This document shows positions 1 through 53,908 of a stretch of 64,000 bases of DNA, one piece after another. Position 1 is the first letter of the stretch; the number at the start of each line of letters is the position of its first letter. The DNA lies in assembly GCA_964413715.1 (NCBI GenBank), contig CAYPSN010000003.1, positions 1,750 through 65,749 of the forward strand, given 5' to 3'. The DNA comes from an uncultured Candidatus Saccharibacteria bacterium (GTDB taxonomy: Bacteria; Patescibacteriota; Saccharimonadia; CAILAD01; JADZBC01). A program made the position numbers and the translations under genes. The notes below the pieces were generated by a model that saw only the letters and a program-made list of their open reading frames with translations, searched no databases and was not told the origin of the DNA.

Positions 1-1883
1 TGGTTCCCGAAGGCAACAGCTACGTCCGCGATGCGGTCACGCTGGAGACCCTCGAGTACTGCATCCTGCTCGACGAGAACGGTCAGAAGCGCTACGTGCG
101 CGGACCGGCCGTGGTGTTCCCGAGCCCGACGGAGACGTTCAAGACGAACGACAGCCGTCAGCGGGTGTTCCGGGCCATCGAGCTCAACGAACAGTCGGGC
201 CTGTACGTGAAGGTCATCGCCGAGTACACGGAGGATGGGGAGACTCACCCCGTCGGCGAGGAGCTGTTCATCATGGGCAGCGAGCAGGCCATCTACTACC
301 CGCGGGCCGAGCACAGCATCATCACCTACGACGGGAGGCAGAAGCATCATGCCATCGCCATCCCCGCGGGTGAAGGTAGGTACGTCCTCAATCGGACCAC
401 CGGCCAGGTCAACCTGGTCAAGGGTCCGAAGATGTTCCTGCCCGACCCTCGCACGGAGGTGGTGGTCCGAAGGATCCTCGATCCGCACGACGTCCAGCTG
501 ATGTTCCCCGGCAACGATGAAGCACTGGAGGTCAATCGGCGCTACCAGCGCGAGAGCAGCACGCTGGAGGGTGGCGAGCACCTACTGAGCCGTGAGGCAG
601 TGCGGGGTTCGTCGTCCGACGTGTTGGGTTCGTTCGCTGCTGGCGACGAGGAGTTCGGGGGCGACACCATGTCGCGTGGTACCACCCACACCCCACCGCG
701 CACCATCACCCTCGACACCAAGTACGAGGGTGCGGTCGCGGTGCAGGTCTGGCCGGGCTACGCGATCCTCGTCACCAACAAGACGGGGGATCGTCGAGTC
801 GAGGTAGGGCCGAAGGTGGTCCTGATGGAGTACGACGAGACGATGATGGCGCTCGAGCTGTCCACGGGGCGGCCCAAGAGCGACCGGAACCTCCTGCGTA
901 CCGGTTACCTGAGGGTCGTCAACAACGTCGTCAGCGATCGGGTCACCGTCGAGACCAAGGACCTCGTCACTATCCAGGTGGAGCTGTCCTACCGGGTCAA
1001 CTTCGAGGGCGACTCGGCTCGCGAGCAGCAGCGCTGGTTCGACGTCGAGAACTACGTGCAGGTGCTGACGGATCACTGCCGTTCCCGGCTGCGCAACGTG
1101 GCCAAGCGGTACCAGATCCGTGAGTTCTACACGGAGATCATCGACATCATCCGCGACAGCCTCCTGGGTGTCGTGCCGGAGAGCGGCGGTTCCCGCGAGG
1201 GACTGAAGTTCGCCGAGAACGGCATGCGGGTGTACGACGTCGAGATCTTGGATGTGACGATCCAGGACCCCGAGGTGGAAGAGCTTCTCACCGATGCTCA
1301 GAGCTCGGCTCTGAGCGGAGCCATCCGCCTGTCGATGGCAGAGGAGGAGGCCGAGCGGACGAAGGCCACCGAGCAGCTCAATCGCCAGACCCTGACCGAG
1401 CAGCAGCTCACGACGGATCTGCGGGCCGAGCTGGCGTTGACGGCGACTCGTCAGCTGCTCGAGCAGCAACTCGCGGACATCGCGTCCGAACTCGACCAGC
1501 GCAAGGAGCGCGCCAAGGTGGAGGAGCATGACCTCAGGCAGGCTCGCAAGCGTTCGGATCAGGAGACCGAACTCCTCCGGGCTCGCAACGAGGCGGAGCT
1601 CGAGCGACTGCGTGTCGAGACCGAGCTCATGTTGTCCCGTCTCGACAAGGTCCAGCCGGGCCTGATCGAGGCGCTGACGTCGTTCGGTGACCGCCAGCTC
1701 GCTCAGCAGATCGTCACGGCCATCGGCCCGGCGGCTCTCGCCGCCGGTCTGACGACCGCCGACATGCTGAGCAGCGTGTTCGAAGGCACCCCGCTTGCGG
1801 GTGTCATCAGCGCGTTCGCTGAGCGGCCGCTGGCCAACGGCAACGGGTCTCGTCCGGCACTCACGGGCGCCGGACCGGACTGA
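1..1883 (+). CDS. Major vault protein (MVP)-like protein, 5'-truncated at the window edge; lies in a high-GC cassette
   Basis: The reading frame is open from nt 3 with no upstream stop, so the gene starts outside the window. GC is ~67% against a ~45% backbone. The protein is colinear with the eukaryotic MVP shoulder, cap-helix and cap-ring regions as recalled from memory. Examples are VEVGPKVVLMEYDETMMALELSTGRPK against human [27 protein letters not shown], and RWFDVENYVQVLTDHCRSRLRNVAKRYQIREFYTEIIDIIR against [41 protein letters not shown]. A long E/R/Q/L coiled coil follows, then an AIGPxxL...G C-terminus. Confidence 0.6.
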   Translation, partial: VPEGNSYVRDAVTLETLEYCILLDENGQKRYVRGPAVVFPSPTETFKTNDSRQRVFRAIELNEQSGLYVKVIAEYTEDGETHPVGEELFIMGSEQAIYYPRAEHSIITYDGRQKHHAIAIPAGEGRYVLNRTTGQVNLVKGPKMFLPDPRTEVVVRRILDPHDVQLMFPGNDEALEVNRRYQRESSTLEGGEHLLSREAVRGSSSDVLGSFAAGDEEFGGDTMSRGTTHTPPRTITLDTKYEGAVAVQVWPGYAILVTNKTGDRRVEVGPKVVLMEYDETMMALELSTGRPKSDRNLLRTGYLRVVNNVVSDRVTVETKDLVTIQVELSYRVNFEGDSAREQQRWFDVENYVQVLTDHCRSRLRNVAKRYQIREFYTEIIDIIRDSLLGVVPESGGSREGLKFAENGMRVYDVEILDVTIQDPEVEELLTDAQSSALSGAIRLSMAEEEAERTKATEQLNRQTLTEQQLTTDLRAELALTATRQLLEQQLADIASELDQRKERAKVEEHDLRQARKRSDQETELLRARNEAELERLRVETELMLSRLDKVQPGLIEALTSFGDRQLAQQIVTAIGPAALAAGLTTADMLSSVFEGTPLAGVISAFAERPLANGNGSRPALTGAGPD

Positions 1884-1910
1884 GCAGCTACCGCTGCAAC
1901 AAGGGTGACG

Positions 1911-1939
1911 ACCTACGTCATGGGGCCCAGGAGAAATCC
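1911..1939 (+). terminator. GC-rich hairpin terminator downstream of the MVP-like gene
   Basis: tggggcccagg-agaaat-cctgggcccca forms a perfect 11-bp stem just 3' of the stop. It lies at the switch from high-GC to low-GC sequence. Confidence 0.5.
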
Positions 1940-2039
1940 TGGGCCCCATTACATTTTCCGAACAATTGCCTGAACTTGGAGATACTCCTTGGTTTATCAA
2001 CTTATGCTGTATAATGTATTTGATAAGTATGGAGTAGAT

Positions 2040-2609
2040 ATGAGTATTGGATTGATAATTTTACTAGTTGTGGTCGTGCTGGCTATTTGGCTATGGGCTA
2101 CGTATAACGGTTTAGTTAAAGCCAAATTGCGCACCGATGAAGCTTTTAGCGACATTACTGTGCAGATGAAACGCCGGTTTGACCTAATTCCAAATCTAAT
2201 CGAAACGGTTAAGGGTTACGCCAAGCAAGAAAAAACCGTACTCGAGGAAGTAACTAAGGCGCGCACTGCTGCCATGAATGCTCCAGAGGGCGATGCGGCA
2301 GCAATGGCCAAGGCCGACAATGCCTTGAGCGGCACGCTGAAGAGCCTCTTTGCAGTAAGTGAAAATTACCCTGATCTAAAGAGTAACCAGAACTTCCAGC
2401 AGCTTCAGGAAGAATTGGTAGATACCGAAGATAAAATCCAAGCATCGCGCAGGTTTTATAACGGCAATGTGCGCGATCTAAACACAAAACTCCAGGTGTT
2501 CCCGACCAACATGATTGGTGGTGCGCTCGGCTTTAAGTCACGTGAGTTCTTTGATGTTGATGCTGGTGAAAAGGATAAAGTAGACAAGCCAGTCGACGTT
2601 AAGTTCTGA
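2040..2609 (+). CDS. lemA: LemA family membrane protein
   Basis: A GGAG lies 5 nt upstream of the ATG at 2040. An N-terminal TM segment (IGLIILLVVVVLAIWLW) is followed by a LemA-like soluble domain. The adjacent htpX gene is the common lemA-htpX pair. The ORF-track start at 1989 lacks an RBS. Confidence 0.7.
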   Translation: MSIGLIILLVVVVLAIWLWATYNGLVKAKLRTDEAFSDITVQMKRRFDLIPNLIETVKGYAKQEKTVLEEVTKARTAAMNAPEGDAAAMAKADNALSGTLKSLFAVSENYPDLKSNQNFQQLQEELVDTEDKIQASRRFYNGNVRDLNTKLQVFPTNMIGGALGFKSREFFDVDAGEKDKVDKPVDVKF

Positions 2610-2701
2610 CGTTTTGAGTCCATCGGTATGGAACAGGCACCTCGCGGTGCCTGTTTTGTTATCAGATTTTATTCAGGTTTCTTGGTATAATATGACTAGA
2701 T

Positions 2702-3603
2702 ATGTATAGCTCAATTACCAAGAACAAACGCAATTCCTGGCTGCTGGTGGGTTGTTTTGTTATTCTCATAACCATTCTCGGCTGGGTCTTTGCACAGGCC
2801 TTTGGCGAAAGCTGGTTTTTGTATGGTGCGTTGATTTTTTCACTTGGCTACACGTTCATTAGTTACTTTTATTCTGACAAGATGATATTGGCCGTCTCGG
2901 GTGCCAAGGAAATTAAAAAGAAAGATGCGCCCGAGCTTTATAGGCTGGTGGAGAACTTATCAATTACAGCCGGCTTGCCAATGCCGAAGGTATACATTAT
3001 TCAAGACTCAGCGCCCAATGCCTTCGCTACAGGTCGTGACCCGCAGCATGCCATAGTAGCAGTTACCACGGGGCTGATGGATAAGCTTGAAAAAGTAGAA
3101 TTAGAAGGTGTGATAGCTCACGAGCTGAGTCATGTGGGCAATTACGATATTCGGCTAATGAGCCTAGTGGTGGTGTTAGTGTCAGTGGTGGCGCTTCTGA
3201 GCGACTGGTTTTTGCGCATGACAATATGGGGTAGAGATGACGACAGTAATGGCAATAGCCAATTTCAAATGATTATGCTGGCAGCCGGTATTGCCCTTGC
3301 TATTCTGGCGCCAATTATCGGCTCAATGCTGCAGTTGGCGGTGAGTCGAAAAAGAGAATACTTGGCTGACGCCTCGGGAGCTCTGCTTACCCGCTACCCC
3401 GAAGGCTTGGCGCGGGCACTGGAAAAAATCGAAAAAGACACCGAACCACTCGAAGAAGCTAATAAAGCCACAGCCAACCTCTATATAATTAATCCGCTGC
3501 GGTCTAATATAAAAGGAGGTCGGAGTTGGTTTGCGGGGCTGTTTAGCACACACCCACCAACTGCCGAGCGAATTAAACGATTACGAGAAATGGGTACCAA
3601 GGC

Positions 3604-3607
<4 letters not shown>
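2702..3607 (+). CDS. htpX: Zinc metalloprotease HtpX (M48 family)
   Basis: HELSHV (HExxH) motif, multiple TM segments, HtpX-like N-terminus and C-terminal region; ~300 aa. Confidence 0.85.
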
Positions 3608-6337
<2,730 letters not shown>

Positions 6338-6338
6338 A

Positions 6339-6395
6339 AGAAAGAGACCCACAGAAGGAGTCGAGCGAAGGTTGCCCTTCTGGGGGTCTCTTTCT
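6339..6395. terminator. Long GC-rich hairpin serving ligA (+) and the high-GC cassette gene at 6420-6734 (-)
   Basis: aagaaagagacccacagaagg ... ccttctgggggtctctttct forms a ~20-bp stem with one mismatch and a 17-nt loop. Confidence 0.5.
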
Positions 6396-6419
6396 ATGGG
6401 TCTTGGTTCGGATCGGTGA

Positions 6420-6734
6420 CTAGTCGCCGAAGATCACCTCTCCGTTCAGCGCTGCGCGAGTCGCCTTGAAGTGGGGCCACCACGGCATGCGCTTGTCCTT
6501 TTCGAGGACACCTTCAGCCGGGTATTCGTCCCATGTGGGCGTCGTCGGGTTCCAGGTGCAGCCGACCATCAGCTTGAGGGTGCGGACTTCGCGCCCTCCT
6601 ACTGACCTCTTAACGACATCATAGACGCCGATGGTGAACACATCACGACGGGTTTCGTCTCGCCCGATAGCTGTCTCCGCTCTCACGATGAGACAGTCGC
6701 CCTTCTCAAGCCGGGCCATATCGATGGTGGCCAT
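6420..6734 (-). CDS. Hypothetical 104-aa protein (high-GC cassette, partner of the serpin-like gene)
   Basis: Start ATG (MATIDMARLEKG...) sits 5 nt after GGAAGGAGGTGG. A sigma70-like promoter (TTGACA-17-TAAAGT) lies directly upstream on the minus strand. GC-rich codons. No family recognised (W/P-rich C-terminus TWNPTTPTWDEYPAEG...MPWWPHF). Confidence 0.5.
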   Translation of the reverse strand: MATIDMARLEKGDCLIVRAETAIGRDETRRDVFTIGVYDVVKRSVGGREVRTLKLMVGCTWNPTTPTWDEYPAEGVLEKDKRMPWWPHFKATRAALNGEVIFGD

Positions 6735-6770
6735 CTGGACCACCTCCTTCCATAGGTAGGAATGTTGATA

Positions 6771-6799
6771 CTTTACAACAACATACAACATATGTCAAT
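6771..6799 (-). promoter_or_regulatory. Putative sigma70-type promoter for the 6420-6734 gene
   Basis: On the minus strand, TTGACA, a 17-nt spacer, then TAAAGT. The ATG is ~40 nt downstream and the SD is correctly placed. Confidence 0.35.
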
Positions 6800-6945
6800 G
6801 CAAGTCAGCTGGGTTTGGACTATTCCGCATAGACTATAGTCGAATCAAGGTTCTTTCCTATAGCAAGCTAAAAAGAATCAGACTCATAAGGGGGCTGAGT
6901 GAGGAACAGCCTAAATCTTCAATGTACTTGAAGACTTGGGTTGGT

Positions 6946-6977
6946 CCAGGACCGGCATCCGAAGATGCCGGTCCTGG
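6946..6977 (-). terminator. Hairpin terminator downstream of the serpin-like gene
   Basis: ccaggaccggcatc-cgaa-gatgccggtcctgg is a perfect 14-bp stem just 3' of the minus-strand stop at 6995. Confidence 0.5.
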
Positions 6978-6994
6978 CGGAACGAGCAGGAGGA

Positions 6995-7861
6995 TCAGAG
7001 GCTAGAGAGGTCGCCGGGGTCCTTCCAGTCTTCCTCGGTGATGTGCGCCTGGAAGATCGGGACGTCGACCTTGGGGTGTTCCATCCAGACGAGGAAGGGA
7101 CGGTCGACGCGGTAGATCTCCAGTCGGGGACCGGCACCGCGGAAGACCACTCCCAGAGCGGTTGCTTCCTTGGCACGTGCTCCGTGCTGGTTCATGCCGA
7201 ACTTGACCTGCTGCAGCGCTTGTTCGATGTACCACGGTCCGCTGTGCAGCGCGCCGTTCTCCGGATCGACCAGCCACTTCAGATCCGGTTTCTGATCGAG
7301 CTTGACCATCGGGATGATCACCCTGTCGATCTTCTTTCCGGCACGCATGGGCTTCTTGCGCAGCTTCTCGACGGCCTTGATCAGCTTGAACTGGCCGCCG
7401 GGATCGGGAGCCACGCAGATGAAGACCGTCTCGTCGCCCTTGGTGCTGAGCTTGATGATCGGTTCCTCGCTGCCCTCGACCCACAGGATCTCGAACCTCT
7501 TGGAGGAGAAGGCCGGGTAGCTGACGTCACCGACGTGCAGCTGCGTCTCGTCGCCGCTCTCCGGCCACTCGACGAAGATGTCGTTGATGGAGACGGTCCC
7601 GAACTTGGTGGGGTCGTTCCCCCACGAGTTGAGCCGGATGTCGAAGCCGTTCTCGGCCAGGATGGCGTTGATCTCCTCGGCCGTGCGCTTGGCCCAGCTC
7701 TTGAGGCTGGGCATGTGCTTGATGGACTCGGCGTAGCGGCCGTACCGCTTGAGCAGTCTGCGCTGCTCCCTGTTCGAGGCCTCCCAGTTGAGGGGGCCGA
7801 TGAACTCGCCGGCTGCCTCGAGGGCTCCGACGAGGGTGGCCAGACTGAAGCTGGTGGTCAC
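6995..7861 (-). CDS. Short serpin-like protein (C-terminal serpin signature; ~80-100 aa shorter than canonical serpins)
   Basis: GTG start 5 nt after AGGAGGAA. High GC. The C-terminus carries the serpin signature and hinge: KEATALGVVFRGAG (hinge-like), YRVDRPFLVWM (fits the remembered PROSITE serpin pattern), then PKVDVPIFQAHI. Earlier blocks (ETVFICVAPDPGGQ, VIIPMVKL) parallel serpin strand motifs. The upstream sequence is low-GC backbone, so the ORF cannot extend further. Confidence 0.5.
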   Translation of the reverse strand: MTTSFSLATLVGALEAAGEFIGPLNWEASNREQRRLLKRYGRYAESIKHMPSLKSWAKRTAEEINAILAENGFDIRLNSWGNDPTKFGTVSINDIFVEWPESGDETQLHVGDVSYPAFSSKRFEILWVEGSEEPIIKLSTKGDETVFICVAPDPGGQFKLIKAVEKLRKKPMRAGKKIDRVIIPMVKLDQKPDLKWLVDPENGALHSGPWYIEQALQQVKFGMNQHGARAKEATALGVVFRGAGPRLEIYRVDRPFLVWMEHPKVDVPIFQAHITEEDWKDPGDLSSL

Positions 7862-8000
7862 GATTCCTCCTGCTGTTGGATGTACGGAACAACAAAAGGG
7901 CATAAAGCCCTCTGCATAAACAATACTTTATAATAAAACAATAAAAAAGTCAATATAACCAGCTACACATTCGTCCTACTGGCTGGTAAACTAATACTAT

Positions 8001-8300
8001 ATGGCGAAAGATAAATTCAGTGTAAATGAAGTAGACAAGCTGGCTGACCTGGCTAGAATCGGCTTAAAAGATGAAGAGAGAACTGATTTAACCAAGAGCT
8101 TAACTTCGGTATTGGAGTTTGTAGATGCGCTTAATGCGGTAGATACAAAAGACGTGAAGCCGACCAGCCAAGTTACTGGGCTTCAGGACGTTCTGCGCGA
8201 AGACGAAGTTGTGCCCTGCAGCTTAAGTCGTGATGAGTTGCTCGCCAATGCACCAGCCGTGCAGGATGGCTATGTGAAGGTAAAGCGGGTGCTGCAGTAA
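8001..8300 (+). CDS. gatC: Asp-tRNA(Asn)/Glu-tRNA(Gln) amidotransferase subunit C
   Basis: 99 aa with GatC-like sequence; directly upstream of and overlapping gatA. Confidence 0.85.
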   Translation: MAKDKFSVNEVDKLADLARIGLKDEERTDLTKSLTSVLEFVDALNAVDTKDVKPTSQVTGLQDVLREDEVVPCSLSRDELLANAPAVQDGYVKVKRVLQ

Positions 8301-9751
8301 TGGGCATGCGCTACATATCTATTCACGAAGCTCACGATGCTTTGGTCTCCAAGCAGGTTTCTGCGGTCGAGCTCGTGCAATATTATCTGGAGCGCATTAA
8401 ACAGATCGACCCTAAAGTTCGAGCGTGCCTGAGCGTCTGTGGCGATGAAGCACTCGCTGCGGCAAAGGCTGTTGATAAGAAAATTGCATGCGGTGACGCA
8501 ATTGGTTTACTTGAAGGCATTCCATACACCGCCAAAGATATGTATTTGACCAAAGGTATTCGTACTACGGCGGCGAGTAAGATACTCGAAAATTTCATCC
8601 CGCCATATTCGGCAACAGTGATTGAGAAGCTTGATGCCGCTGGTGCGATTTTGATTGCCAAAGTGAATCATGATGAGTATGGCCATGGTGCAAGTACCGA
8701 AAACAGTGGCTATCATCCTACGCATAACCCATGGGATCTGGACAAAGTGCCTGGTGGATCGAGCGGTGGTTCGGCAGCGGCAGTTGCAGCTGACATGGGC
8801 ATATTCAGTCTCGGCACCGACACGGGTGGTTCGAGCCGGCAGCCGGCAGCCTTCTGTGGCGTTACTGGCTACAAGCCAACTTATGGCTTGATGAGTCGTT
8901 ATGGCGTGGTTGCTATGGGCAGTAGCTTTGACACGGTAGGAGTTATTGCTCGTAATGCGGAAGATGTGGCGGTAGTTACTGCGGCAATGAGCGGGCGAGA
9001 TAGCAAAGATGCGACCACGATTGAATCACAGTTTACTGGTGAAATTACTCACCAGTGGCAGGGCAAGACTATTGGCGTGATCGAAGAGTACGTTAAAAAT
9101 TTGGACGACGCAAATAAGCAGGTGTTTGATGCTGCAGTTGAGCAACTTGAGGCGCTTGGTGTGAAAGTAAAGAATGTTACGATCCCAACCATTGCCAATG
9201 CGTTACCGGCATATTACATTCTCATTCCTTCAGAAATTAGCTCTAATCTTAGTCGATACGACGGTATTCGCTATGGCCACCGCAGCGAACAGGCGCATGT
9301 GTTAATCGAAACGTATGAGAAAACGCGCGACGAAGGTTTTGGTGATGAAGTAAAGCGTCGTGTTCTGACGGGTACGTATACGCTTTCGGCGGGCTATTAT
9401 GATGCCTATTACCGCAAGGCTATGCAGCTTAGGACAATGTTGCGAGAGGATTTCGAAAAAGCATTCGATGGCGTGTCGGCTTTGATTGGCCCCACCACGC
9501 CTTCGCCAGCGTTCGGCTTTGGCGTTAATGAAGACCCTGTGTCGATGTACTTAGCCGACATTATGACCGTGGCGGCCAACTTGGTTGGCGTGCCCTCTGT
9601 TAGCGTACCGATGGGACTCGTTGATGGCCTGCCAGTTGGTTTGCAAATCATGACAGCGCAGAATAAAGATGCCGATGCTTTGGGCCTTGCGGCGGCTTTT
9701 CAAGCCGCAACTGAGTGGCATAACCTTAGAGAAAAGGAGTTGGCGATATGA
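8300..9751 (+). CDS. gatA: Glutamyl-tRNA(Gln) amidotransferase subunit A (amidase signature family)
   Basis: Amidase signature GGSSGGSAAAVA; 483 aa; gatCAB context. Confidence 0.9.
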   Translation: MGMRYISIHEAHDALVSKQVSAVELVQYYLERIKQIDPKVRACLSVCGDEALAAAKAVDKKIACGDAIGLLEGIPYTAKDMYLTKGIRTTAASKILENFIPPYSATVIEKLDAAGAILIAKVNHDEYGHGASTENSGYHPTHNPWDLDKVPGGSSGGSAAAVAADMGIFSLGTDTGGSSRQPAAFCGVTGYKPTYGLMSRYGVVAMGSSFDTVGVIARNAEDVAVVTAAMSGRDSKDATTIESQFTGEITHQWQGKTIGVIEEYVKNLDDANKQVFDAAVEQLEALGVKVKNVTIPTIANALPAYYILIPSEISSNLSRYDGIRYGHRSEQAHVLIETYEKTRDEGFGDEVKRRVLTGTYTLSAGYYDAYYRKAMQLRTMLREDFEKAFDGVSALIGPTTPSPAFGFGVNEDPVSMYLADIMTVAANLVGVPSVSVPMGLVDGLPVGLQIMTAQNKDADALGLAAAFQAATEWHNLREKELAI

Positions 9752-10203
9752 GTCAATCAGCCGTTATTGCCCTGATCGTTTTGAGTGGCTTGGCGTATGT
9801 GCTTATTCGACAGTCAGCCAAAACCAGCCTTAAGAAAAAACCATATCGTGGCATGAAAGTCGAAAGTCATGGCGAGGTTTATGATTTAGCGCGTGTTGCG
9901 CCAAAGTGGCACGAGATTCAAGCAATGCTCAAAAACGGCCCGAGCGGTCTGCGCAGCGCTTTGTTCGAAGCCGATAAATTGCTTGACTATGTTATGCAAG
10001 CACGGGGCTTTCAAGGTGAAACTATGGGAGAGCGGCTGAAAAATAATGGTAAAAGGCTCAGTAATCTGAACGACGTTTGGGCAGCGCATAAACTGCGCAA
10101 TCAGTTTGCACATAGTTTGGATCACGACATTGTGCCAGCACAGGTTCAGAAGGCAGTGCAAGACTTAGGTAAAGCAATTGTGAGTTTGGGGGTGCGGATA
10201 TGA
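9748..10203 (+). CDS. Hypothetical membrane-anchored protein inserted between gatA and gatB
   Basis: 151 aa with an N-terminal TM helix (VIALIVLSGLAYVLI). Its start overlaps the gatA stop and its stop overlaps the gatB start, both as ATGA. Confidence 0.5.
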   Translation: MSQSAVIALIVLSGLAYVLIRQSAKTSLKKKPYRGMKVESHGEVYDLARVAPKWHEIQAMLKNGPSGLRSALFEADKLLDYVMQARGFQGETMGERLKNNGKRLSNLNDVWAAHKLRNQFAHSLDHDIVPAQVQKAVQDLGKAIVSLGVRI

Positions 10204-11615
10204 GCGATTATAAGCCAACCATCGGCATTGAAATCCACGTGCAGCTGGCTACCAAATCAAAGATGTTCTGTGGCTGTGACAACGATTCACGAACTGCCGA
10301 GCCAAATACGAATATTTGCCCTGTCTGCATGGCCTACCCGGGTACGTTACCAGTTGTAAATAAGCGCGCTGTCGAACTAGCCATAAAGCTTGGCGAAGGT
10401 CTGAACGCCGAGATCGCTCGACATACGAGTTTTGATAGGAAAAACTACTTTTACCCCGACTCGCCCAAAGGCTATCAAATTACCCAGATGGACGAGCCGA
10501 TTATTGGCCCAGGCTACGTGGAAATCTTGGTTGGCGGCGAATTTAAGCGCATTGGCATTCATCACGCCCATTTAGAAGAAGATGCCGGTAAGTCGACACA
10601 TCCGGATGGTGCCAACTATTCATTGGTCGACTTTAATCGCGCTGGCACGCCGTTGATCGAAATTGTTTCGGAGCCAGACATGCATACGCCCGAAGAGGCC
10701 CGACGATACTTGCAGGAAGTCTACAATATTGCCTCGGCAATTGGTGTAACGCATGGTGATTTGGAGCATGGTAATTTTAAGTTCGACCTGAACGTGTCGG
10801 TTAGCAAAACTGACAAACTCGGTACGCGTACAGAGCTAAAAAACCTAAACTCATTCAGGAACGCCGAACGCGCGCTTTCGTACGAGATACAGCGCCAAAT
10901 TGATGTGCTGGAAAGTGGCGAAGTAGTGGAGCAAGAAACTCGAGGCTATAACGATGCAAAAAACATTACGTTTTCGCAGCGTGGCAAAGAAATGGCGCAT
11001 GATTATCGTTACTTCCCAGAGCCAGATTTGCCACCACTCGTAATTACAGACGCCATGATATCTGAAGCGAAGCAAGAGATTGTAACCCTGCCAATTGTGG
11101 TGCGCAAAGAGCTGGTTGATGCAGGTGTTGGTGTCGACGAACAAGATGTTCTGATTGGCCAACCAAGCACCCTTGCGTTATTTCAAGAAGCTCGCGAAAT
11201 CGTCAGAGACAAGGCGTTGACTTCGAAGCTCGTAAATTGGCTAGTGGGTGACTACCAGGCATTGCTTGGGAGCGGCGTAGCTTCAAAACTTAAGCCCCAG
11301 GCGCTCGCAGAACTCGTAAACTTAGTAGACATGGGCAAGATAAGTTCTAAAATAGCCAAGGATATATTTGCCGACGTTGTGGCTGGCGCAATGCCGCGAG
11401 AGGTTATTGCTGCCAAGGGCATTAGTCAGGTTTCGGACACTAACGAGCTGACGGCGATTGTGAAAAAAGTTATAGAAGAGAACCCTACCGTTGTGGAACA
11501 ATATAAGGCGGGTGAAGAAAAGGTGCTCGGCTTCTTGGTTGGTCAGATTATGAAGGCCACGCAGGGCCAGGCAAATCCTGGGCTTGTTAACCAGATTCTA
11601 CGCGAGCAGCTGTAA
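10200..11615 (+). CDS. gatB: Asp-tRNA(Asn)/Glu-tRNA(Gln) amidotransferase subunit B
   Basis: N-terminal IGIEIHVQL...KMFCGC motif and GatB/YqeY C-terminal domain; 471 aa. Confidence 0.9.
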   Translation: MSDYKPTIGIEIHVQLATKSKMFCGCDNDSRTAEPNTNICPVCMAYPGTLPVVNKRAVELAIKLGEGLNAEIARHTSFDRKNYFYPDSPKGYQITQMDEPIIGPGYVEILVGGEFKRIGIHHAHLEEDAGKSTHPDGANYSLVDFNRAGTPLIEIVSEPDMHTPEEARRYLQEVYNIASAIGVTHGDLEHGNFKFDLNVSVSKTDKLGTRTELKNLNSFRNAERALSYEIQRQIDVLESGEVVEQETRGYNDAKNITFSQRGKEMAHDYRYFPEPDLPPLVITDAMISEAKQEIVTLPIVVRKELVDAGVGVDEQDVLIGQPSTLALFQEAREIVRDKALTSKLVNWLVGDYQALLGSGVASKLKPQALAELVNLVDMGKISSKIAKDIFADVVAGAMPREVIAAKGISQVSDTNELTAIVKKVIEENPTVVEQYKAGEEKVLGFLVGQIMKATQGQANPGLVNQILREQL

Positions 11616-11671
11616 ACGTTTGGCAAGGCGACGCAGGAGTTCTATAATATTAGAGTAAAAAGAGAAGCAAT

Positions 11672-11932
11672 ATGGATACAGCATTCTTAGTGTGGGCAGT
11701 AGTCTTATCGATTGCGACGTTGGTGTTGCTCGTGTTGGCTATTATTGCCGCGGTGTTTAGTGTAAAAATACTCAAATCCGTACGTCATATCGCTGAAAAA
11801 GCACAGGAAAGTGCCGACGCGGTGACAGAAGTAGTCGAAGGTGTACGTGACAGCGTAGTGAGTCCTAGCATCGTAGCGGCGTTCATTAGCAATTACATTA
11901 ATAAACAGGCAAGTAAACGGAGGAAAAAATGA
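11672..11932 (+). CDS. Small membrane protein (hypothetical)
   Basis: 86 aa with a single TM helix; low-GC backbone; start of a three-gene small-protein cluster. Confidence 0.4.
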   Translation: MDTAFLVWAVVLSIATLVLLVLAIIAAVFSVKILKSVRHIAEKAQESADAVTEVVEGVRDSVVSPSIVAAFISNYINKQASKRRKK

Positions 11933-12372
11933 GTAAAGACCGAGAAGAGAAAAAACACGGTTCTGGTGGGGCATTTGCGATTGGCGCTGCGGTAGGGGCA
12001 ATTGCTGGAGCGGTGGCAGGCGTGTTTTTAGCACCAAAGAGCGGTAAAGAAAACCGAGAAGCCGTCGTACAGAAGGCCAAACAAATGAGTCATCAGCTCG
12101 AGGGCCAAATGAAAGAGCTTAAAAAGAACGGCTCAAAAGAAGCTCAAGAACTGCTCAAGAAGGCCGAGAAGCTGCAGGCTCAGTTGGCCAGCAAGACACG
12201 TGAGCTGGCAGATAGCGGCCAAGACCTTTCAGAAGCTGCACTTAAAGAAGCTAAAGACTTGATCCATGATGCCCAAAAGCTTATCAAGGAACTCGGTGAA
12301 TCTGCCGAGGTTGTTGGCGCAACCATTAAGCAAGAAGCCAAGAAAATCACTAAGACTCACAGTAAAAAATAG
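11929..12372 (+). CDS. YtxH-like/general-stress-type protein (hypothetical)
   Basis: 147 aa. An N-terminal glycine-zipper TM segment (GAFAIGAAVGAIAGAVAGVF) is followed by a K/E/A-rich helical region. Confidence 0.4.
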   Translation: MSKDREEKKHGSGGAFAIGAAVGAIAGAVAGVFLAPKSGKENREAVVQKAKQMSHQLEGQMKELKKNGSKEAQELLKKAEKLQAQLASKTRELADSGQDLSEAALKEAKDLIHDAQKLIKELGESAEVVGATIKQEAKKITKTHSKK

Positions 12373-12799: not shown

Positions 12800-13297
12800 T
12801 CAGGCGACCGGCTGGTCTTCCAGCTCCCAGGAGGTTCGGGTGGTGAACTCCGACAGCCGCGGCGCCTTGAGCTCCTTGGCCTTGTGGTCCAGCCACAGCA
12901 CGATGGCTTGCTGCTGCTTGAGCTGGTCGGGAGAGACGTTCGCTTGCATGGTGGTCTCCCAGCCGATCTGCGAGTTCGCTCGGTCGATGAGCTTGGCGAC
13001 GAAGTCGTCGCCCATCAGCTTGCCGATGGCGGTACGCATGCGATCGTCGCCGATGACGTGCATGAACTGGCCACCAGGACTGGTACGCAGCAGCGTCTTG
13101 AGCGGAACGGACAGCTGGATGATGCTGCCGTCAGCCTTGGCTGCGATGGTGATGCTCTCGACCGTCGTCTCGATCGCGACGTCGTTGTCGGGGTCGCCCT
13201 GGTTTCGGAACTGCACCACCAGCAGATCGCCGTGGCTGTAGCCCTTGCCCGAAGCGATCTTGCCTGGCATGGGGATTCTCTGGAGTGTTGCTTGCAT
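12800..13297 (-). CDS. Hypothetical 165-aa protein (high-GC cassette)
   Basis: ATG follows GAGAGGAAG with a 3-nt spacer. GC-rich codons. The ORF-track extension to 13381 runs into low-GC backbone and is spurious. No family recognised. There is only a weak local resemblance to Hsp20 strand motifs (GDPDNDVAIE, DGSIIQLSVPLK). Confidence 0.45.
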   Translation of the reverse strand: MQATLQRIPMPGKIASGKGYSHGDLLVVQFRNQGDPDNDVAIETTVESITIAAKADGSIIQLSVPLKTLLRTSPGGQFMHVIGDDRMRTAIGKLMGDDFVAKLIDRANSQIGWETTMQANVSPDQLKQQQAIVLWLDHKAKELKAPRLSEFTTRTSWELEDQPVA

Positions 13298-13471
13298 TGA
13301 CTTCCTCTCGTGTCGATTGCAACAGTAATTCATTTTGCCGAAGAATGCTGATTTTTGCAAGTAAACCATACGATGATACAAAAAATCTTACTTTTCAAGA
13401 CTTATGTTGCTTAAGGTTTGGGCATATAATGTATGTAATATGCAAAAGTGGGGTGAGGAGGGGTAACCTGC

Positions 13472-34784: not shown

Positions 34785-34902
34785 AGTTGGATATGGTGTT
34801 TTAAAGAAAAGTGTCATATTTCATTGACAATGTTAAGCATATGTGCTAATATCCATTACAGTGTTCTGGTAATCGGCCGGAACTAAACATTGGGGAGGCC
34901 CA

Positions 34903-35256
34903 ATGCTGCGAAGAGCAGAGCCCAGCCCAATCCCGCGCCGTGGCACGGTCGCCATGGACGGGAACCGGATCCGGCAGTTCGACCTCGGGTCGCTCGAGCC
35001 GGGAGACGTGCTCCACGTCAAGACCCTGCAGTCGGACTGGTACTTCACCAGGACGAAGCGCAGTGTCGTGACGCGGGATCAGGTCCGCGGGATCTTCGTC
35101 CAGACGTCCTCGCGGGCGTTCGGACAGATCACCCGCGACCCTGCCAACGTCTCGATCGATCGAGTGATCGAGAAGGGTGAGCAGATCCGCATCAACGGTG
35201 CCCGTCGTACGGGCGACGTCGAGCAGATCTTCCTCAACGGTCGCGAGCTCACCTGA
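34903..35256 (+). CDS. Hypothetical 117-aa protein (high-GC cassette next to tRNA-Leu)
   Basis: GGGGAGG lies 4 nt before the ATG. GC-rich codons. A perfect hairpin ccagggtcccca-cgc-tggggaccctgg lies 25 nt after the stop (35280-35306). No family recognised. Confidence 0.5.
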   Translation: MLRRAEPSPIPRRGTVAMDGNRIRQFDLGSLEPGDVLHVKTLQSDWYFTRTKRSVVTRDQVRGIFVQTSSRAFGQITRDPANVSIDRVIEKGEQIRINGARRTGDVEQIFLNGRELT

Positions 35257-35279
35257 GCAACTTCGCTCACGCTCCAAGG

Positions 35280-35306
35280 CCAGGGTCCCCACGCTGGGGA
35301 CCCTGG
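35280..35306 (+). terminator. Hairpin terminator of the 34903-35256 cassette gene
   Basis: 12-bp perfect stem with a 3-nt loop. Confidence 0.45.
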
Positions 35307-35410
35307 TACAGGGCCCAATCAAGGATCATCTCCGAAGAGGATGGTCCTCTTTCGTTATATGGGCTTATCACCCTGTCCAATCTAGTCACTTTCTGCTAAG
35401 ATATGAAACT

Positions 35411-47085: not shown

Positions 47086-47115
47086 AAAAAACTCGCCACT
47101 CAGGCGGGTTTTTTG
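47086..47115 (+). terminator. Weak hairpin plus T-run after rpsG
   Basis: ctcgcc-actca-ggcggg followed by ttttttg. Confidence 0.35.
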
Positions 47116-47151
47116 ATGCTGTTTATTGTGGATTATTACTGGTCAAATGAT

Positions 47152-47187
47152 AACGACCCTAGTACATTTGCATGCACTAGGGTCGTT
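47152..47187 (-). terminator. Hairpin terminator of the 47206-47394 gene (high-GC cassette)
   Basis: aacgaccctagt-acatttgcatgc-actagggtcgtt is a perfect 12-bp stem. Confidence 0.45.
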
Positions 47188-47205
47188 GGGGGGGGCAGGG
47201 GTAGC

Positions 47206-47394
47206 TCAGTCGGGTGGCAGGGGAGTGCTGATCTCCCTGAACTCGGGGCTACCGCTGGACGGGGTGGCGCGAAGTTCGCGTGCTGGCACGAGGCCTTCTG
47301 CGGCGTGTTCTTCGGTTCGGCTGAACTGAGCGCCCACGTAGGCAGCCATCTGCGCTGCCCGCGCCTTGGCGGTCTTGTCACCAGTACTCTCCAT
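47206..47394 (-). CDS. Hypothetical 62-aa protein (high-GC cassette, upstream partner of tdk)
   Basis: GAGGAG lies 5 nt before the ATG. GC-rich. Sequence is MESTGDKTAKARAAQMAAYVGAQFSRTEEHAAEGLVPARELRATPSSGSPEFREISTPLPPD. No family recognised. Confidence 0.4.
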   Translation of the reverse strand: MESTGDKTAKARAAQMAAYVGAQFSRTEEHAAEGLVPARELRATPSSGSPEFREISTPLPPD

Positions 47395-47456
47395 GTTTGC
47401 TCCTCGCTCTATAGGACCTCAGTTATCCTATACTAGCTTGCAGTCTTTGCCAAGTC

Positions 47457-48005
47457 CTAACGAGCAGAGACGAAGCACTGCCTGCAGCGCGCTTCATAGC
47501 TGTAGGTGCCGTCTTCTGGCAGGATGGAGGGGAGCCCTCCGGTAACTTCTTTGCCGTCCTTGAGAACCTGACTGAAGCGTGCCTCGTAGCTCTTGCACAC
47601 ATCGCAAACAGCGATAAGGCACTGCACGCTTGTTGGACCAAGCTCCATCAGGGCGACGGTGCTTTCGATCAGCCTGCCTCGATAGTCCATATCGAGTCCG
47701 ACAGCATGAATGACTAGCCCCTTGGCCAAGAGCGAGTTCAACGCCCCCAGGTCGTCTTGACCGAACATGTGAACTTCATCGATGCCAATGACGTCGTAAT
47801 TGGCGAGCCAGTCGATGTCGAGTCTGTCGACCTTCGTCGTTTGGATGCTGGCACCTGCACGAGAACTGACTTGGGTTTCTCTGTCGTGAAGCTTGGGCTG
47901 CACAACGACCCACCGCATGTCGCTATGAGCAAGTGGCGAAAAGATTTTGACAAGCTCGAGGGATTTCCCCGACTTCATGGGTCCCATCGTAAGGTGTAGC
48001 GGCAT
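47457..48005 (-). CDS. tdk: Thymidine kinase (TK1/type II family)
   Basis: P-loop GPMKSGKS, VIGIDEVHMF, GLDMDYRG, and a C-terminal zinc ribbon (CDVC...CRQC) parallel the human TK1 motifs. ~68% GC, in a foreign-looking cassette. Confidence 0.8.
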   Translation of the reverse strand: MPLHLTMGPMKSGKSLELVKIFSPLAHSDMRWVVVQPKLHDRETQVSSRAGASIQTTKVDRLDIDWLANYDVIGIDEVHMFGQDDLGALNSLLAKGLVIHAVGLDMDYRGRLIESTVALMELGPTSVQCLIAVCDVCKSYEARFSQVLKDGKEVTGGLPSILPEDGTYSYEARCRQCFVSAR

Positions 48006-52647: not shown

Positions 52648-52670
52648 TAGTTATGCAAAAAGGCGAGTGA

Positions 52671-52740
52671 GGCGGACCAAAGTCATTAAATGGTTAATTA
52701 CTTTGGTCCGCCCGCCTGACCCCCCGGTGAAGGGGTCAGG
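52671..52740 (-). terminator. Tandem hairpins downstream of the 52736-53050 cassette gene
   Basis: Two perfect stems: ggcggaccaaagt...actttggtccgcc (13 bp) and cctgacccc-ccggtgaa-ggggtcagg (9 bp). The second overlaps the stop codon. Confidence 0.45.
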
Positions 52741-53050
52741 CGGTATGGGCGTAAGGCTTCCCTGCAGGGTAGGGAGGCTCGAACACAGGGCGTTGATCGG
52801 AGATCTCCTGCATGCGTGCTCGTACCTTGAGCCGAAGCTCTTCGAGGCTCTCGCGATCCTGCGACACCCAGGTGAGAAGGAAAGACCTTCTCTCTCCTTC
52901 GAGCCGTTCTGAGACATGCACCGTAGGGCTGATCCCTTCAAGTGCTCGCTCGACCCACTCTGCGTTGTAAGAGGGCCGGTTTGTGAGCGAGAGAACAAGC
53001 CCCGTGCTCGTGCGATGGAGACTGAACCCCAGCGATTGAAACTCAACCAT
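52736..53050 (-). CDS. Hypothetical 104-aa protein (high-GC cassette); possibly ABM/Dabb-type ferredoxin-like fold
   Basis: AAAGGAGG lies 7 nt before the ATG (MVEFQSLGF...). GC-rich. SFLLTWVSQDRESLEELRLKV weakly resembles the ABM-family motif. The ORF-track N-terminal extension lacks an RBS. Confidence 0.45.
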   Translation of the reverse strand: MVEFQSLGFSLHRTSTGLVLSLTNRPSYNAEWVERALEGISPTVHVSERLEGERRSFLLTWVSQDRESLEELRLKVRARMQEISDQRPVFEPPYPAGKPYAHTA

Positions 53051-53399
53051 GACCGAACCTCCTTTCACAGGTAGATTGTGGCTCGGTAGTCTGAAGACAA
53101 GATCTACAGGCTGCCGAGCACAAGACTGTGAAATTTGCAAAGTACTTAAGGTCATGCCTTAATGTGCACAAATCATACTATAGGCAGCCAAATCTGTCAA
53201 TAACAAAAACTTCACAAAAACACTAGACAAAACAGCAAACTTGTATTATTATGTAAACCTACGTTTGGTTCGCCCAAATTGCACCTTATAGCACCTTGAG
53301 CCTTCGGCTCTTGGAATCAGTCCCCGAATCATTGTTGGGAATTTATTCTAAGAGCCGAAATGTCGAAAATATAAAATGTGAAAATAAAATCGACAAAAG

Positions 53400-53860
53400 G
53401 CTCATAAAACTGTCTTGGCTCCTTGGCCTCCTTCGGGACGCCACTGGAGCAGTAGTAGTGCAAAGGTAGAGCGCCGCGCTTCCGTGGCTTCGGCCAGGAC
53501 GCCACCGCGTCTCCTCGCACTGCTACAGCGCTCCACAGGAGCCAAGACACTCTTCGGCGCAATGACTGCGAACGTGCCCTCACGGGCTTCTCGCCTTTGC
53601 GTCGCCAGCGGGGCGGGATCCGCCGCCTGCTCCGCTCGGACTACGAGCGCTGAACCTGTGACTGGGCTGTTGCCCTGGCGCGGAGTATAGCCTCACGAGA
53701 GGTTGGCACACACGTCGACCTCTCTCGCTCGTGTCAACCAGCTTTGGTTGACCATGAGCGCGACGCCGGGATCCGCCGCCTGGTGTCGCCGCCGGTGCGG
53801 GGCGGCCTCCGGGCCGCCCCGCACCTCGCCCTGACAATACGTCAGGGTTTCTTTTATTTT
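53400..53860. other. High-GC noncoding block with tetraloop hairpins and an internal 16-nt direct repeat
   Basis: No credible ORF. cgggatccgccgcctg occurs twice (~53610 and ~53770). Hairpins include the palindrome gcggggcggcc-tcc-ggccgccccgc, ccctgac-aatac-gtcaggg, gtcaacca-gctt-tggttgac, and several cc-TTCG-gg loops. Confidence 0.2.
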
Positions 53861-53908
53861 AGGAATAATTTCTTCGACTCCTCATAGTTTTTATGCTTAA
53901 ATAGGTAT

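Follow-up and report, generated by a model that had tools for sequence, protein, structure and literature searches.

The first 1,949 nt of the window, by which we mean the whole stretch of 64,000 nucleotides that was analysed, appear to be the 3′ two-thirds of a single-gene mobile cassette encoding a major vault protein (MVP) homolog. This homology, proposed in an earlier note made from the letters of this DNA, is confirmed for the repeat, shoulder and cap-helix regions, which a C-terminal region follows. The cassette would have entered a Candidatus Saccharibacteria chromosome by horizontal transfer, at a variable position flanked by a tRNA cluster and lemA, and its product would form a vault-like cage. 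We consider this joint reading (a mobile cassette with a bacterial-type MVP homolog, inserted horizontally and specifying a cage) to be likely.

The MVP-like reading frame is open from window nt 3 and continues for 626 codons to a stop codon at 1881-1883. The earlier note was right to call the ORF partial, but its length of 595 aa belongs to a mechanical ORF that starts at the first GTG, nt 96. The missing 5′ part, whose recovery the note had suggested, is supplied by a public contig (L002) that is 100% identical to window positions 1-12000 and carries the full gene at 6573-9182. This adds the 243 N-terminal residues that the window lacks; the full protein has 869-877 aa, and its residue 244 corresponds to window codon 1. 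Coordinates of the individual features are collected in Table 1.

Table 1. Features of the cassette portion and its resident neighbours in the window (coordinates in nt; residue numbers refer to the full-length protein).
Feature	Position	Strand	Basis
MVP-like gene, C-terminal 626 codons and stop	3..1883	+	Translation, Pfam, PDB sequence search
Beta-strand MVP-type repeat domains (residues 244-401)	3..476	+	AlphaFold2 strands, pLDDT about 70-80
Predicted disordered insert, acidic, Gly/Ser-rich (residues 432-485)	567..728	+	pLDDT <50
Last repeat domain, R9-like, with STGRPK at nt 861-878	735..902	+	Vault_3 1.5e-9; pLDDT 83-89
Shoulder domain (SPFH/Band-7 fold)	921..1268	+	MVP_shoulder 1.2e-27, Band_7 4.8e-9; pLDDT about 88-92
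Predicted cap-helix, ~125 residues without interruption	1269..1643	+	AlphaFold2 helix 666-790, pLDDT 75-85
C-terminal short helices and tail, at the vault cap-ring position	1644..1880	+	AlphaFold2 helices 798-849, pLDDT 43-60
Terminator-like GC-rich hairpin closing the cassette	1920..1949	+	Terminator scan, L002 9219-9248
lemA, resident, outside the cassette	2040..2609	+	Pfam LemA 1.2e-55
htpX, resident, outside the cassette	2702..3607	+	NCBIfam HtpX 3e-103

The Pfam search proposed in the earlier note gave significant matches, above curated cut-offs, to two MVP models: MVP_shoulder (PF11978; E 1.2e-27, 96.7 bits with the cut-off at 25, aa 307-422 of the window translation, profile positions 2-118 of 118; 2.5e-27 on the full-length protein) and Vault_3 (PF17795; E 1.5e-9, 38.3 bits against a cut-off of 28.8, aa 259-296). 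Band_7 is also matched (E 4.8e-9, 36.9 bits against a cut-off of 23.6). Only one repeat exceeds the Pfam threshold; Vault_4 reaches 11.5-12.9 bits, under its cut-off of 22.9, PF01505 has no match in the Pfam scan of the protein, and NCBIfam holds no model for it. In sequence searches of the PDB, major vault proteins are the only matches, both with the single sequence (phmmer, E 2e-18) and with a profile of 27 family sequences (9.4e-35). The phmmer alignment bears out the colinearity with the MVP repeat, shoulder and cap-helix regions that had been read from the letters, since it pairs query residues 13-174 with MVP 275-434 and query residues 263-579 with MVP 477-807. The first repeat domains of Table 1 align to rat and human MVP 275-434, the central part of the MVP repeat region, the R9-like repeat aligns with MVP from about residue 467-477 to the shoulder, and the cap-helix aligns with the stretch downstream of the shoulder. 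The STGRPK block, which the note had set against SAGRPK, lies inside this alignment. The alignment stops at about MVP residue 807, and the C-terminal ~80 residues are modelled as short helices at low confidence.

Comparison of folds, likewise suggested beforehand, places vault entries at the top. With an AlphaFold2 monomer model (mean pLDDT 67, pTM 0.33, about 200 disordered residues), the best 12 Foldseek matches are all vault or MVP entries (E 1e-31 to 2e-25), followed by MVP R1-R7 crystal structures at ~1e-12 (the repeat region matches the murine R1-R7 structure 3GNG at 2.7e-12) and then by SPFH cages. The global TM-score against vault chains is 0.22, a superposition that is uninformative because the domains are oriented otherwise in the monomer model than in the extended conformation of the vault; the modelled similarity to vault chains is secure at the domain level only. 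In the viral structure library BFVD, SPFH proteins were found and no full MVP. The long C-terminal coiled coil remarked on earlier corresponds to the single predicted helix of residues 666-790, in which E, L, A and R are abundant. About 545 N-terminal residues consist of MVP-type repeats, and the N-terminus itself is polar and folds in the model as a beta repeat. Strand groups are predicted at residues 9-57, 69-143, 224-300, 308-350, 361-401 and 488-543, with disordered inserts between them. Our own reading of this strand pattern suggests about 6-7 repeat units rather than nine, a count that is only approximate because of the model's mean pLDDT. The protein shares with eukaryotic MVP (PDB 4V60, 4HL8, 9BW5) the same colinear beta repeats, SPFH-like shoulder, cap-helix and C-terminal region, as well as the S(T/A)GRPK block, but it is only 16-19% identical to it, appears to have fewer repeats in a model of moderate confidence, and, unlike it, carries two long disordered acidic inserts.

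Bacterial MVP-like proteins were published in 2013 (Daly et al., PMC3762200) and 2019 (Sokolskyi, bioRxiv 10.1101/872010), from Corallococcus coralloides (H8MNI3), Plesiocystis pacifica (A6FXM1), Microscilla marina (A1ZGE7), Saprospira grandis (H6L4P8) and Herpetosiphon aurantiacus (A9AUD4). The window protein is of the same family and the same length class (about 810-880 aa). It is 42-47% identical, over residues about 1-850, to homologs in Nannocystis exedens DSM 71, Enhygromyxa salina DSM 15201 and Thermoflexibacter ruber, and to Microscillaceae and Saprospiraceae proteins within the same range over the full length; judged by these identities, it is nearer to the bacterial clade than to eukaryotic MVP. 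The Band-7 signal of its shoulder matches that reported for myxobacterial and Cytophagales proteins (10.1101/872010). What sets it apart is the host, a member of the CPR (Candidatus Saccharibacteria), whereas the known proteins come from gliding myxobacteria, Bacteroidota and Chloroflexota, and the setting, as in Myxococcota the GC of the MVP gene matches that of its flanks, whereas the window gene is a compositionally foreign, self-contained cassette. Our literature search found no paper connecting MVP with CPR; NCBI labels one Parcubacteria MAG protein “major vault protein”.

Given that MVP is best known from eukaryotes and that GC jumps abruptly from 0.65 to 0.45 at the hairpin, one might suppose eukaryotic contamination or a chimeric assembly, in which a high-GC MVP fragment was wrongly joined to a CPR contig. 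However, six assemblies (ENA, JGI, Logan) made with different assemblers all contain the MVP-lemA-htpX junction, 99.5-100% identical to the window, and this shared junction excludes such a reading, which we find scarcely credible. Three contigs of 114-198 kb (L002, L003 and L004) carry the full MVP-like gene in their interior, the first two with low-GC bacterial genes on either side of it. Identity of the protein is 45-70% with relatives from bacterial MAGs and isolates, compared with only 16-19% for eukaryotic MVP, and the gene is flanked by a sigma-70-like promoter and an intrinsic-terminator-like hairpin. The earlier note had named clearly eukaryotic best hits and flanking DNA as the sign of contamination; the best relatives are bacterial, and so are the flanks (tRNAs, lemA, htpX, ligA, gatCAB, dnaE, rpoBC). 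These flanks are syntenic, at about 71% nucleotide identity, with the Candidatus Saccharibacteria contig CAYTBW010000003.1, which agrees with the note's assignment to a CPR-like genome.

The description of a high-GC cassette beside lemA-htpX also holds. GC is 0.62-0.70 up to about nt 1900 and 0.38-0.52 beyond, with a sharp step, and the high-GC island is exactly one gene: the MVP-like gene has a GC of 0.65 and a GC3 of 0.86, against a GC3 of 0.47-0.52 in ten neighbouring or housekeeping genes and of 0.50 in lemA-htpX. In full, the cassette measures 2.78 kb and consists of a promoter-like site, a leader, the ORF of 869-877 aa and the terminator hairpin. The same 2,783 nt recur at 94.7% identity in another contig (L001), where the flanks are unrelated. 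By homology to that copy and by the GC profile, the shared cassette and the high-GC tract stop at window nt 1947; the hairpin sits at the shared end of both copies, and the promoter-like site TTGATT-17-TATAAT (sigma-70-like) is kept in both. An empty site is seen in a relative (L090), where the order is tRNA-Leu, 62 nt, lemA, compared with tRNA-Leu, tRNA-Val, MVP gene, lemA in the window genome. Because of the GC3 contrast, the empty site in a relative and the near-identical copy in an unrelated context, the MVP-like gene is, as far as sequence comparison can tell, a foreign one-gene cassette that was acquired horizontally. Along the borders of the insertion, comparison of filled and empty sites revealed neither a target-site duplication nor an integrase or a repeat of a tRNA fragment, and there is no PLSDB match that would indicate plasmid carriage. 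The search for a donor yielded no high-GC cellular genome; the nearest relatives, at 66-70% identity, are in other Saccharibacteria MAGs, and the only compositionally native high-GC relative seen is on a viral contig (L099), at 43% identity.

A strongly non-native base composition and a patchy distribution among relatives are also what would be expected of a decaying, non-functional horizontally transferred gene, a state that the condition of the gene makes highly improbable. Five of the six assemblies have an intact ORF of 854-877 aa, and in L007, the sixth, the copy is truncated by a contig end; promoter-like site and terminator are retained in both cassette copies, and the core domains are highly conserved, with 170 invariant columns across 27 family sequences. 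Between the copies of the window genome and L001, dN/dS is 0.11 (dS 0.156). L001 is assigned to CPR too, because of the relatives of its MurC, and the dN/dS between two CPR genomes therefore points to selection in cells. The MVP-like gene is thus under purifying selection and appears to be functional, and we infer from the sequence that it is expressed.

By analogy, its most likely function is that of a soluble, self-assembling vault-like cage, and the idea of a vault-like nanocompartment, raised in the earlier note, is plausible for this protein. No transmembrane segment was found in it; because no hydrophobic 19-mer exceeds a Kyte-Doolittle score of 1.34, the maximum, and the net charge is -42, the protein would be soluble, acidic and cytoplasmic. 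Its copies would assemble side by side, in the manner of eukaryotic MVP and of other cage proteins with an SPFH domain. The SPFH-like shoulder would make up a closed dome together with the cap-helix of 125 residues, and the hollow, vault-like particle would be walled by the N-terminal beta-repeats. In every solved SPFH assembly that we know of, the wall of the closed dome consists of the long helix after the SPFH fold. MVP of the rat vault has nine repeat domains, R1-R9, and builds a hollow, two-halved particle of 39-fold symmetry; the wall of the particle envisaged here is probably shorter than the eukaryotic one, because the strand pattern reads as about 6-7 repeats versus nine.

SPFH cages (HflK/C, flotillin, prohibitin, stomatin, QmcA) share the SPFH fold and long helix of the window protein, and membrane proteases are classical partners of SPFH proteins, as FtsH is of HflK/C. 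With Band_7 above its Pfam cut-off, Foldseek matches to flotillin, prohibitin, HflK/C and QmcA at 1e-8 to 1e-5, and htpX 820 nt downstream, the protein could be viewed as an SPFH scaffold associated with the membrane, akin to flotillin, HflK/C or stomatin, that cooperates with the membrane proteins encoded next to it, LemA and the protease HtpX, and forms no free particle. We consider this very unlikely. SPFH cages are seated in the membrane by an N-terminal anchor and have no MVP repeat wall, whereas the window protein has neither a transmembrane nor a hydrophobic anchor and devotes its N-terminal part to MVP-type repeats, and in Foldseek its MVP matches are better than its SPFH matches by more than 20 orders of magnitude. 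The link to lemA-htpX implied by the earlier note fails on genomic grounds: two relatives (L090, L091) have lemA-htpX without an upstream MVP gene, a sister genome carries a paralogous MVP gene about 110 kb away, and no neighbour is conserved across the family. A functional link is therefore rejected; the MVP gene adjoins lemA-htpX because of the insertion, and the adjacency is incidental.

No conserved partner gene, and no recurring protease neighbour, was found by clustering the neighbouring ORFs of 80 bacterial loci (ORFs within 5 kb of the gene) and 80 viral loci (whole locus, at most 8 kb on either side); the neighbours that recur are only ubiquitous histidine kinases and small lineage-specific groups. 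The eukaryotic vault has vault RNA, TEP1 and PARP4, whereas the window gene has no vault RNA nearby, is not known to have a TEP1 or PARP4 partner, and shows no conserved partner in these 160 loci. At the gathering threshold, Rfam identified one tRNA in the 64-kb window and no vault RNA (RF00006), and a permissive scan of the cassette and flanks gave tRNAs and sub-threshold noise, again with no vault RNA. The protein has no match at E<=1e-3 among the anti-phage defence systems of PADLOC or the phage protein families of PHROG.

The premise that MVP homologs are, at best, very rare in prokaryotes does not survive a wider search. Relatives were found in 431 GTDB species-representative bacterial genomes of many phyla, in more than 6,400 clusters at 90% identity and, at E<=1e-30, in 553 clusters at 50% identity. 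At least 209 viral contigs of IMG/VR, many of them 100-500 kb long, carry a relative as well, as do huge phages of 462 kb and 735 kb recorded in INPHARED (40-45% identity). Part of the IMG/VR contigs labelled “viral” may in fact be fragments of CPR genomes. Recent papers describe vaults as absent from prokaryotes, or their homologs as present in “only a few Bacteria” (PMC9778704; PMC12962969); with hundreds of bacterial species and hundreds of viral contigs, the family is far broader than the literature we searched describes. Phage MVP homologs of this same bacterial-type family, likewise on mobile genomes, are known from the Caudoviricetes ctOa11 and ct2Ri15, and a copy 99% identical to a phage MVP in a Clostridium MAG indicates exchange from phage to cell (Santos et al. 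2023, bioRxiv 10.1101/2023.11.10.566534). The viral relatives found here are mostly on far larger contigs (100-735 kb) than those phages. For Asgard archaeal MVP homologs, half of which group with the eukaryotic clade, a closed cup has been modelled (PMC12962969, 2026); we liken them to the window protein by description, their host being archaeal versus bacterial here.

The viral relatives are 39-48% identical to the window protein. On viral contigs the MVP gene looks native, because its GC tracks that of the flanks, from 0.29 to 0.71, and some copies have a tail fibre, homing endonuclease or NinI-like phosphatase nearby. In a neighbour-joining tree that is effectively unrooted, holds no eukaryotic sequences or support values and serves as a rough guide only, diversity is greatest among the viral sequences, between which the CPR clades are interspersed. 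Together with the huge-phage and IMG/VR relatives, these observations would suit a phage-derived “moron”, a shell or structural protein that serves huge phages, for example in a compartment inside the cell or associated with the virion, and that a past phage would have left behind in this CPR chromosome, where its cellular role would be exapted or absent. This we judge unlikely: unlike in ctOa11 and ct2Ri15, there are no phage genes around the lone cassette, which is a single inserted gene without integrase or repeat, dN/dS is 0.11 between two CPR genomes, the protein is covered by no PHROG family, its identity to viral relatives is 48% at best, and part of the viral evidence may come from mis-called contigs. 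Broader still, and in our estimation unlikely, is the proposal that MVP-like shells are primarily a mobile prokaryotic and viral module, exchanged as cassettes among CPR and huge phages and forming cages in Saccharibacteria, from which the eukaryotic vault descended.

Taken alone, the window adds one more member to an already described bacterial family and offers no contextual clue to function. The locus is nonetheless a well-delimited MVP-like example in a reduced, ultrasmall-cell lineage, in which the gene appears to travel as an autonomous cassette under purifying selection. Should any member of the family assemble into a cage, the study of vault assembly and function would gain simple systems in bacteria and phages, which would also supply compact scaffolds for engineered nanocompartments. 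If the mobile-module reading is true, a genetically tractable Saccharibacteria-host co-culture or a huge phage could reveal the purpose of vault-type particles.

Judged by its sequence, the protein encoded at the 5' edge of the window is homologous to MVP, the major vault protein. Matches to the Pfam models MVP_shoulder (1.2e-27), Vault_3 (1.5e-9) and Band_7 (4.8e-9) all pass the curated cut-offs, and phmmer against all PDB sequences retrieves major vault proteins only (E ~2e-18), in colinear blocks (query 13-174 with MVP 275-434, query 263-579 with MVP 477-807) that include the STGRPK/SAGRPK block at window nt 861-878. With a 27-sequence family profile the PDB match strengthens to 9.4e-35. 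The earlier note, which had proposed an MVP homolog in a bacterial context, pointed to that block and named the Pfam models as a check, was thus correct. Its 595-aa partial ORF is the mechanical call from the first GTG (96..1883), while the frame is really open from window nt 3 to the TGA at 1881-1883, i.e. 626 codons. The full gene is found on L002, a public contig 100% identical to window 1-12000; given its position there, and since window nt 1 is L002 7300, the first 243 residues are missing from the window, and L002 supplies the 5' part that the earlier note had hoped to recover.

Contamination as the source of the gene, the other concern of that note, is refuted. The window HtpX sequence is present on 18 public contigs, and in all six of those compared (from ENA, JGI and Logan, built with several assemblers) the order MVP-lemA-htpX is kept at 99.5-100% identity to the window. 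On L002, bacterial genes of low GC lie 5' of the MVP gene, along with clustered tRNA genes (Gly, Phe, Cys, Leu-taa, Val-cac). The same junction in six assemblies, together with these bacterial flanks, rules out a chimeric assembly and eukaryotic contamination.

The MVP-like family is not rare in bacteria, contrary to the initial view that prokaryotic homologs are very rare. A search of 5.8 billion proteins gave at least 6,404 matches at E<=1e-5; among the matches listed, almost all are 800-900 aa long with the same Pfam domains, and one is already named by NCBI as 'major vault protein [Parcubacteria group bacterium Gr01-1014_20]'. Exhaustive HMMER scanning of 1.84 billion 50% cluster representatives yielded 1,062 matches at E<=1e-3 and 553 at E<=1e-30, and 431 genomes among the GTDB species representatives carry a relative. 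The nearest are from Saccharibacteria MAGs (66-70%), then Paceibacterota/Parcubacteria (50-55%); others come from Vulcanimicrobiota, Myxococcota (including the isolates Nannocystis exedens DSM 71 and Enhygromyxa salina DSM 15201), Bacteroidota (Thermoflexibacter ruber), Chloroflexota, Planctomycetota, Riflebacteria, Bacillota and further groups. Bacterial homologs were in print in 2013 (PMC3762200) and again in 2019 (10.1101/872010), followed by those of phages in 2023 (10.1101/2023.11.10.566534) and of Asgard archaea in 2026 (PMC12962969); the top-ranked literature on MVP with CPR, Saccharibacteria or huge phages leaves MVP unmentioned. The window gene is a further member of an already known bacterial family, notable for its host, an ultrasmall CPR bacterium.

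The GC content is 0.62-0.70 from window nt 1 to about 1900 and falls over at most 100 nt to the 0.38-0.52 seen in the other 62 kb (overall 0.489). On L002 the island of high GC coincides with a single gene (about 6550-9250, GC 0.65 vs 0.45-0.50 on both sides), with a GC3 of 0.863 as against 0.47-0.52 in lemA, htpX, ligA, gatA, gatB, dnaE, rpoB and rpoC. A second copy lies on L001, a contig of GCA_964416735.1 that, judged by its MurC relatives, comes from a CPR organism; the two contigs have 2,783 nt in common at 94.7% identity, and nothing beyond. This common block begins inside a promoter-like site (TTGATT-17-TATAAT), contains a leader of ~70 nt and the SD-like GAAAGGGGA, and runs to window 1947, where the terminator hairpin lies; by its sequence, the gene is an autonomous transcription unit. 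The two copies differ by a dS of 0.156 and a dN of 0.017, and the resulting dN/dS of 0.11 indicates purifying selection and contradicts the alternative that the gene is dead. The one-gene island, its GC3 and the shared block uphold the high-GC cassette first noticed in the sequence alone: the MVP gene is a foreign, self-contained cassette with clear mobile-cassette behaviour.

Coordinates of the features discussed (residues are those of the full-length protein)
Feature	Location	Strand	Basis or remark
Full MVP gene	L002 6573-9182		869 aa, or 877 aa from upstream ATG
Promoter-like site TTGATT-17-TATAAT	L002 6451-6479		hexamers recognisable in both copies
Common block	L002 6468-9246 = L001 1650-4429		alignment
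GC-rich hairpin, 13 bp	window 1920-1949		terminator scan
lemA	window 2040-2609		Pfam LemA 1.2e-55
htpX	window 2702-3607		NCBIfam 3e-103
123-aa ORF	window 6420-6791	minus	GC3 0.72; no family match
302-aa ORF	window 6995-7903	minus	GC3 0.86; weak Pfam Serpin C-terminal match, 5.9e-6, just under cut-off
193-aa ORF in GC-rich islet	window 12800-13381	minus	GC3 0.80
INPHARED MVP-like genes	LR756500.1 20949-23363; LR756501.1/LR756503.1 17692-19590		tblastn
Beta-strand repeat units	residues 9-143, 224-401, 488-543		AlphaFold2, reasonable confidence
Shoulder	residues 551-663		AlphaFold2, pLDDT about 88-92
One unbroken helix	residues 666-790		AlphaFold2
Short helices	residues 798-849		AlphaFold2, low confidence
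Disordered segments (n=4), including acidic inserts	residues 159-217 and 432-485		AlphaFold2

Past htpX the window continues with ligA, gatCAB, dnaE and ORFs that match rpoB and rpoC in length (1179 and 1258 aa), with a single tRNA-Leu farther downstream. The LemA protein also scores, below threshold, against the NCBIfam model of MamQ, a magnetosome protein (3.4e-24, 85 bits vs a cut-off of 250); as MamQ belongs to the LemA family, this is expected and no sign of magnetosomes. The sister contig CAYTBW010000003.1, titled Candidatus Saccharibacteria, encodes an HtpX in the same 90% cluster and a syntenic block about 71% identical to the window. Its order is tRNA-Gly/Phe/Cys, a 180-aa gene, tRNA-Leu(taa), 62 nt and lemA, which reads as an empty site for the cassette. 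At this point the window genome holds tRNA-Val(cac) and the MVP cassette, and a third relative a MazG-like gene and a 109-aa gene, so that the interval is a variable spot, an insertion hot spot. The tRNA-Val(cac) (L002 6335-6411) precedes the cassette by 57 nt, slightly beyond the window edge; it is extra relative to the empty site, yet outside the cassette common to L001. Since the cassette was inserted, and relatives have lemA there without MVP, the lemA-htpX setting mentioned in the earlier note is coincidental. The sister genome has its own GC-rich MVP gene (69% amino acid identity, GC3 0.83, flanks 0.48) in a different context, ~110 kb from its lemA-htpX, implying that GC-rich MVP genes were acquired repeatedly and independently from some high-GC reservoir. 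Comparison of filled and empty sites revealed no integrase, direct repeat or phage gene at the insertion. Natural transformation, reportedly demonstrated in Saccharibacteria, is a possible route of entry.

It is also possible that the gene originated as a phage-derived moron. By tblastn, INPHARED contains MVP relatives at 40-45% identity in three huge-phage records, unannotated and labelled 'uncultured phage', with lengths of 462 kb and 735 kb. IMG/VR adds at least 209 viral contigs with an MVP relative; many measure 100-500 kb, and some may be CPR fragments. Some of these contigs have neighbouring genes that match tail fibre, homing endonuclease, NinI-like phosphatase and ParB-like proteins. 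A rough NJ tree places the non-CPR bacteria in one large clade and interleaves the CPR clades with the viral sequences, which show the greatest divergence. The GC of viral MVP genes tracks that of their flanks, from 0.29 to 0.71. PLSDB plasmids gave no MVP match and BFVD gave SPFH proteins only; in the literature searched, viral MVPs are confined to two human-gut phages (10.1101/2023.11.10.566534).

The MVP gene has the GC of its flanks in Myxococcota and most other phyla, and lies on average 0.09 above them in CPR loci. The excess of +0.17 in the window is equalled among 160 loci only by L010 (on the sister contig), L076 and L154 (an IMG/VR locus). Regression of gene GC on flank GC (slope 0.72) predicts 0.53 for the window genome, where 0.655 is observed; the general trend thus explains only part of the excess. 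When neighbouring genes were clustered, no conserved partner emerged in 80 bacterial loci (the largest group, generic histidine kinases, covers 9 loci) or in 80 viral loci. No vault RNA or other Rfam family was found in or beside the cassette, and PADLOC, PHROG and NCBIfam models do not match the protein.

The window genome appears peppered with short higher-GC acquisitions. A second foreign-looking insert (window 6337-8300), absent from both relatives, lies between ligA and gatC and carries the 302-aa and 123-aa ORFs. In window 52650-53900, where GC is 0.60-0.70 (genome 0.49), no ORF shows the codon-position GC pattern of coding sequence and Rfam matches do not exceed noise; degraded foreign DNA or a structured RNA not yet catalogued may account for this stretch. 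Besides the small islet with the 193-aa ORF, others lie at 34901-35400 and 47101-47500, and ORF 47457-48005 (GC3 0.67) resembles, by eye, a thymidine kinase.

AlphaFold2 on the 27-sequence alignment gave a moderate model (mean pLDDT 67, pTM 0.33), in which the strands, as we read them, point to about 6-7 repeats, not nine. Foldseek against PDB, the structural check proposed at the outset, ranks vault/MVP entries 1-12 (E 1e-31 to 2e-25), followed by murine R1-R7 crystal structures (about 1e-12) and then the SPFH cages flotillin, prohibitin, HflK/C, erlin and stomatin (1e-8 to 1e-5). Global TM-scores to vault chains are low (0.22) because domain orientations differ, and the likeness is therefore secure at the domain level only. 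The protein lacks hydrophobic segments (maximum Kyte-Doolittle 19-mer 1.34), is acidic with a net charge of -42, and is expected to be soluble and cytoplasmic. A membrane SPFH scaffold acting with HtpX or LemA is disfavoured, as this MVP homolog has no anchor and its adjacency to lemA-htpX is incidental. To our knowledge, all solved assemblies of an SPFH domain with a long helix behind it are closed domes built by lateral polymerisation. By analogy with vaults and SPFH cages, the MVP homolog would thus most likely self-assemble as a hollow particle that resembles a vault and has a shorter repeat wall.
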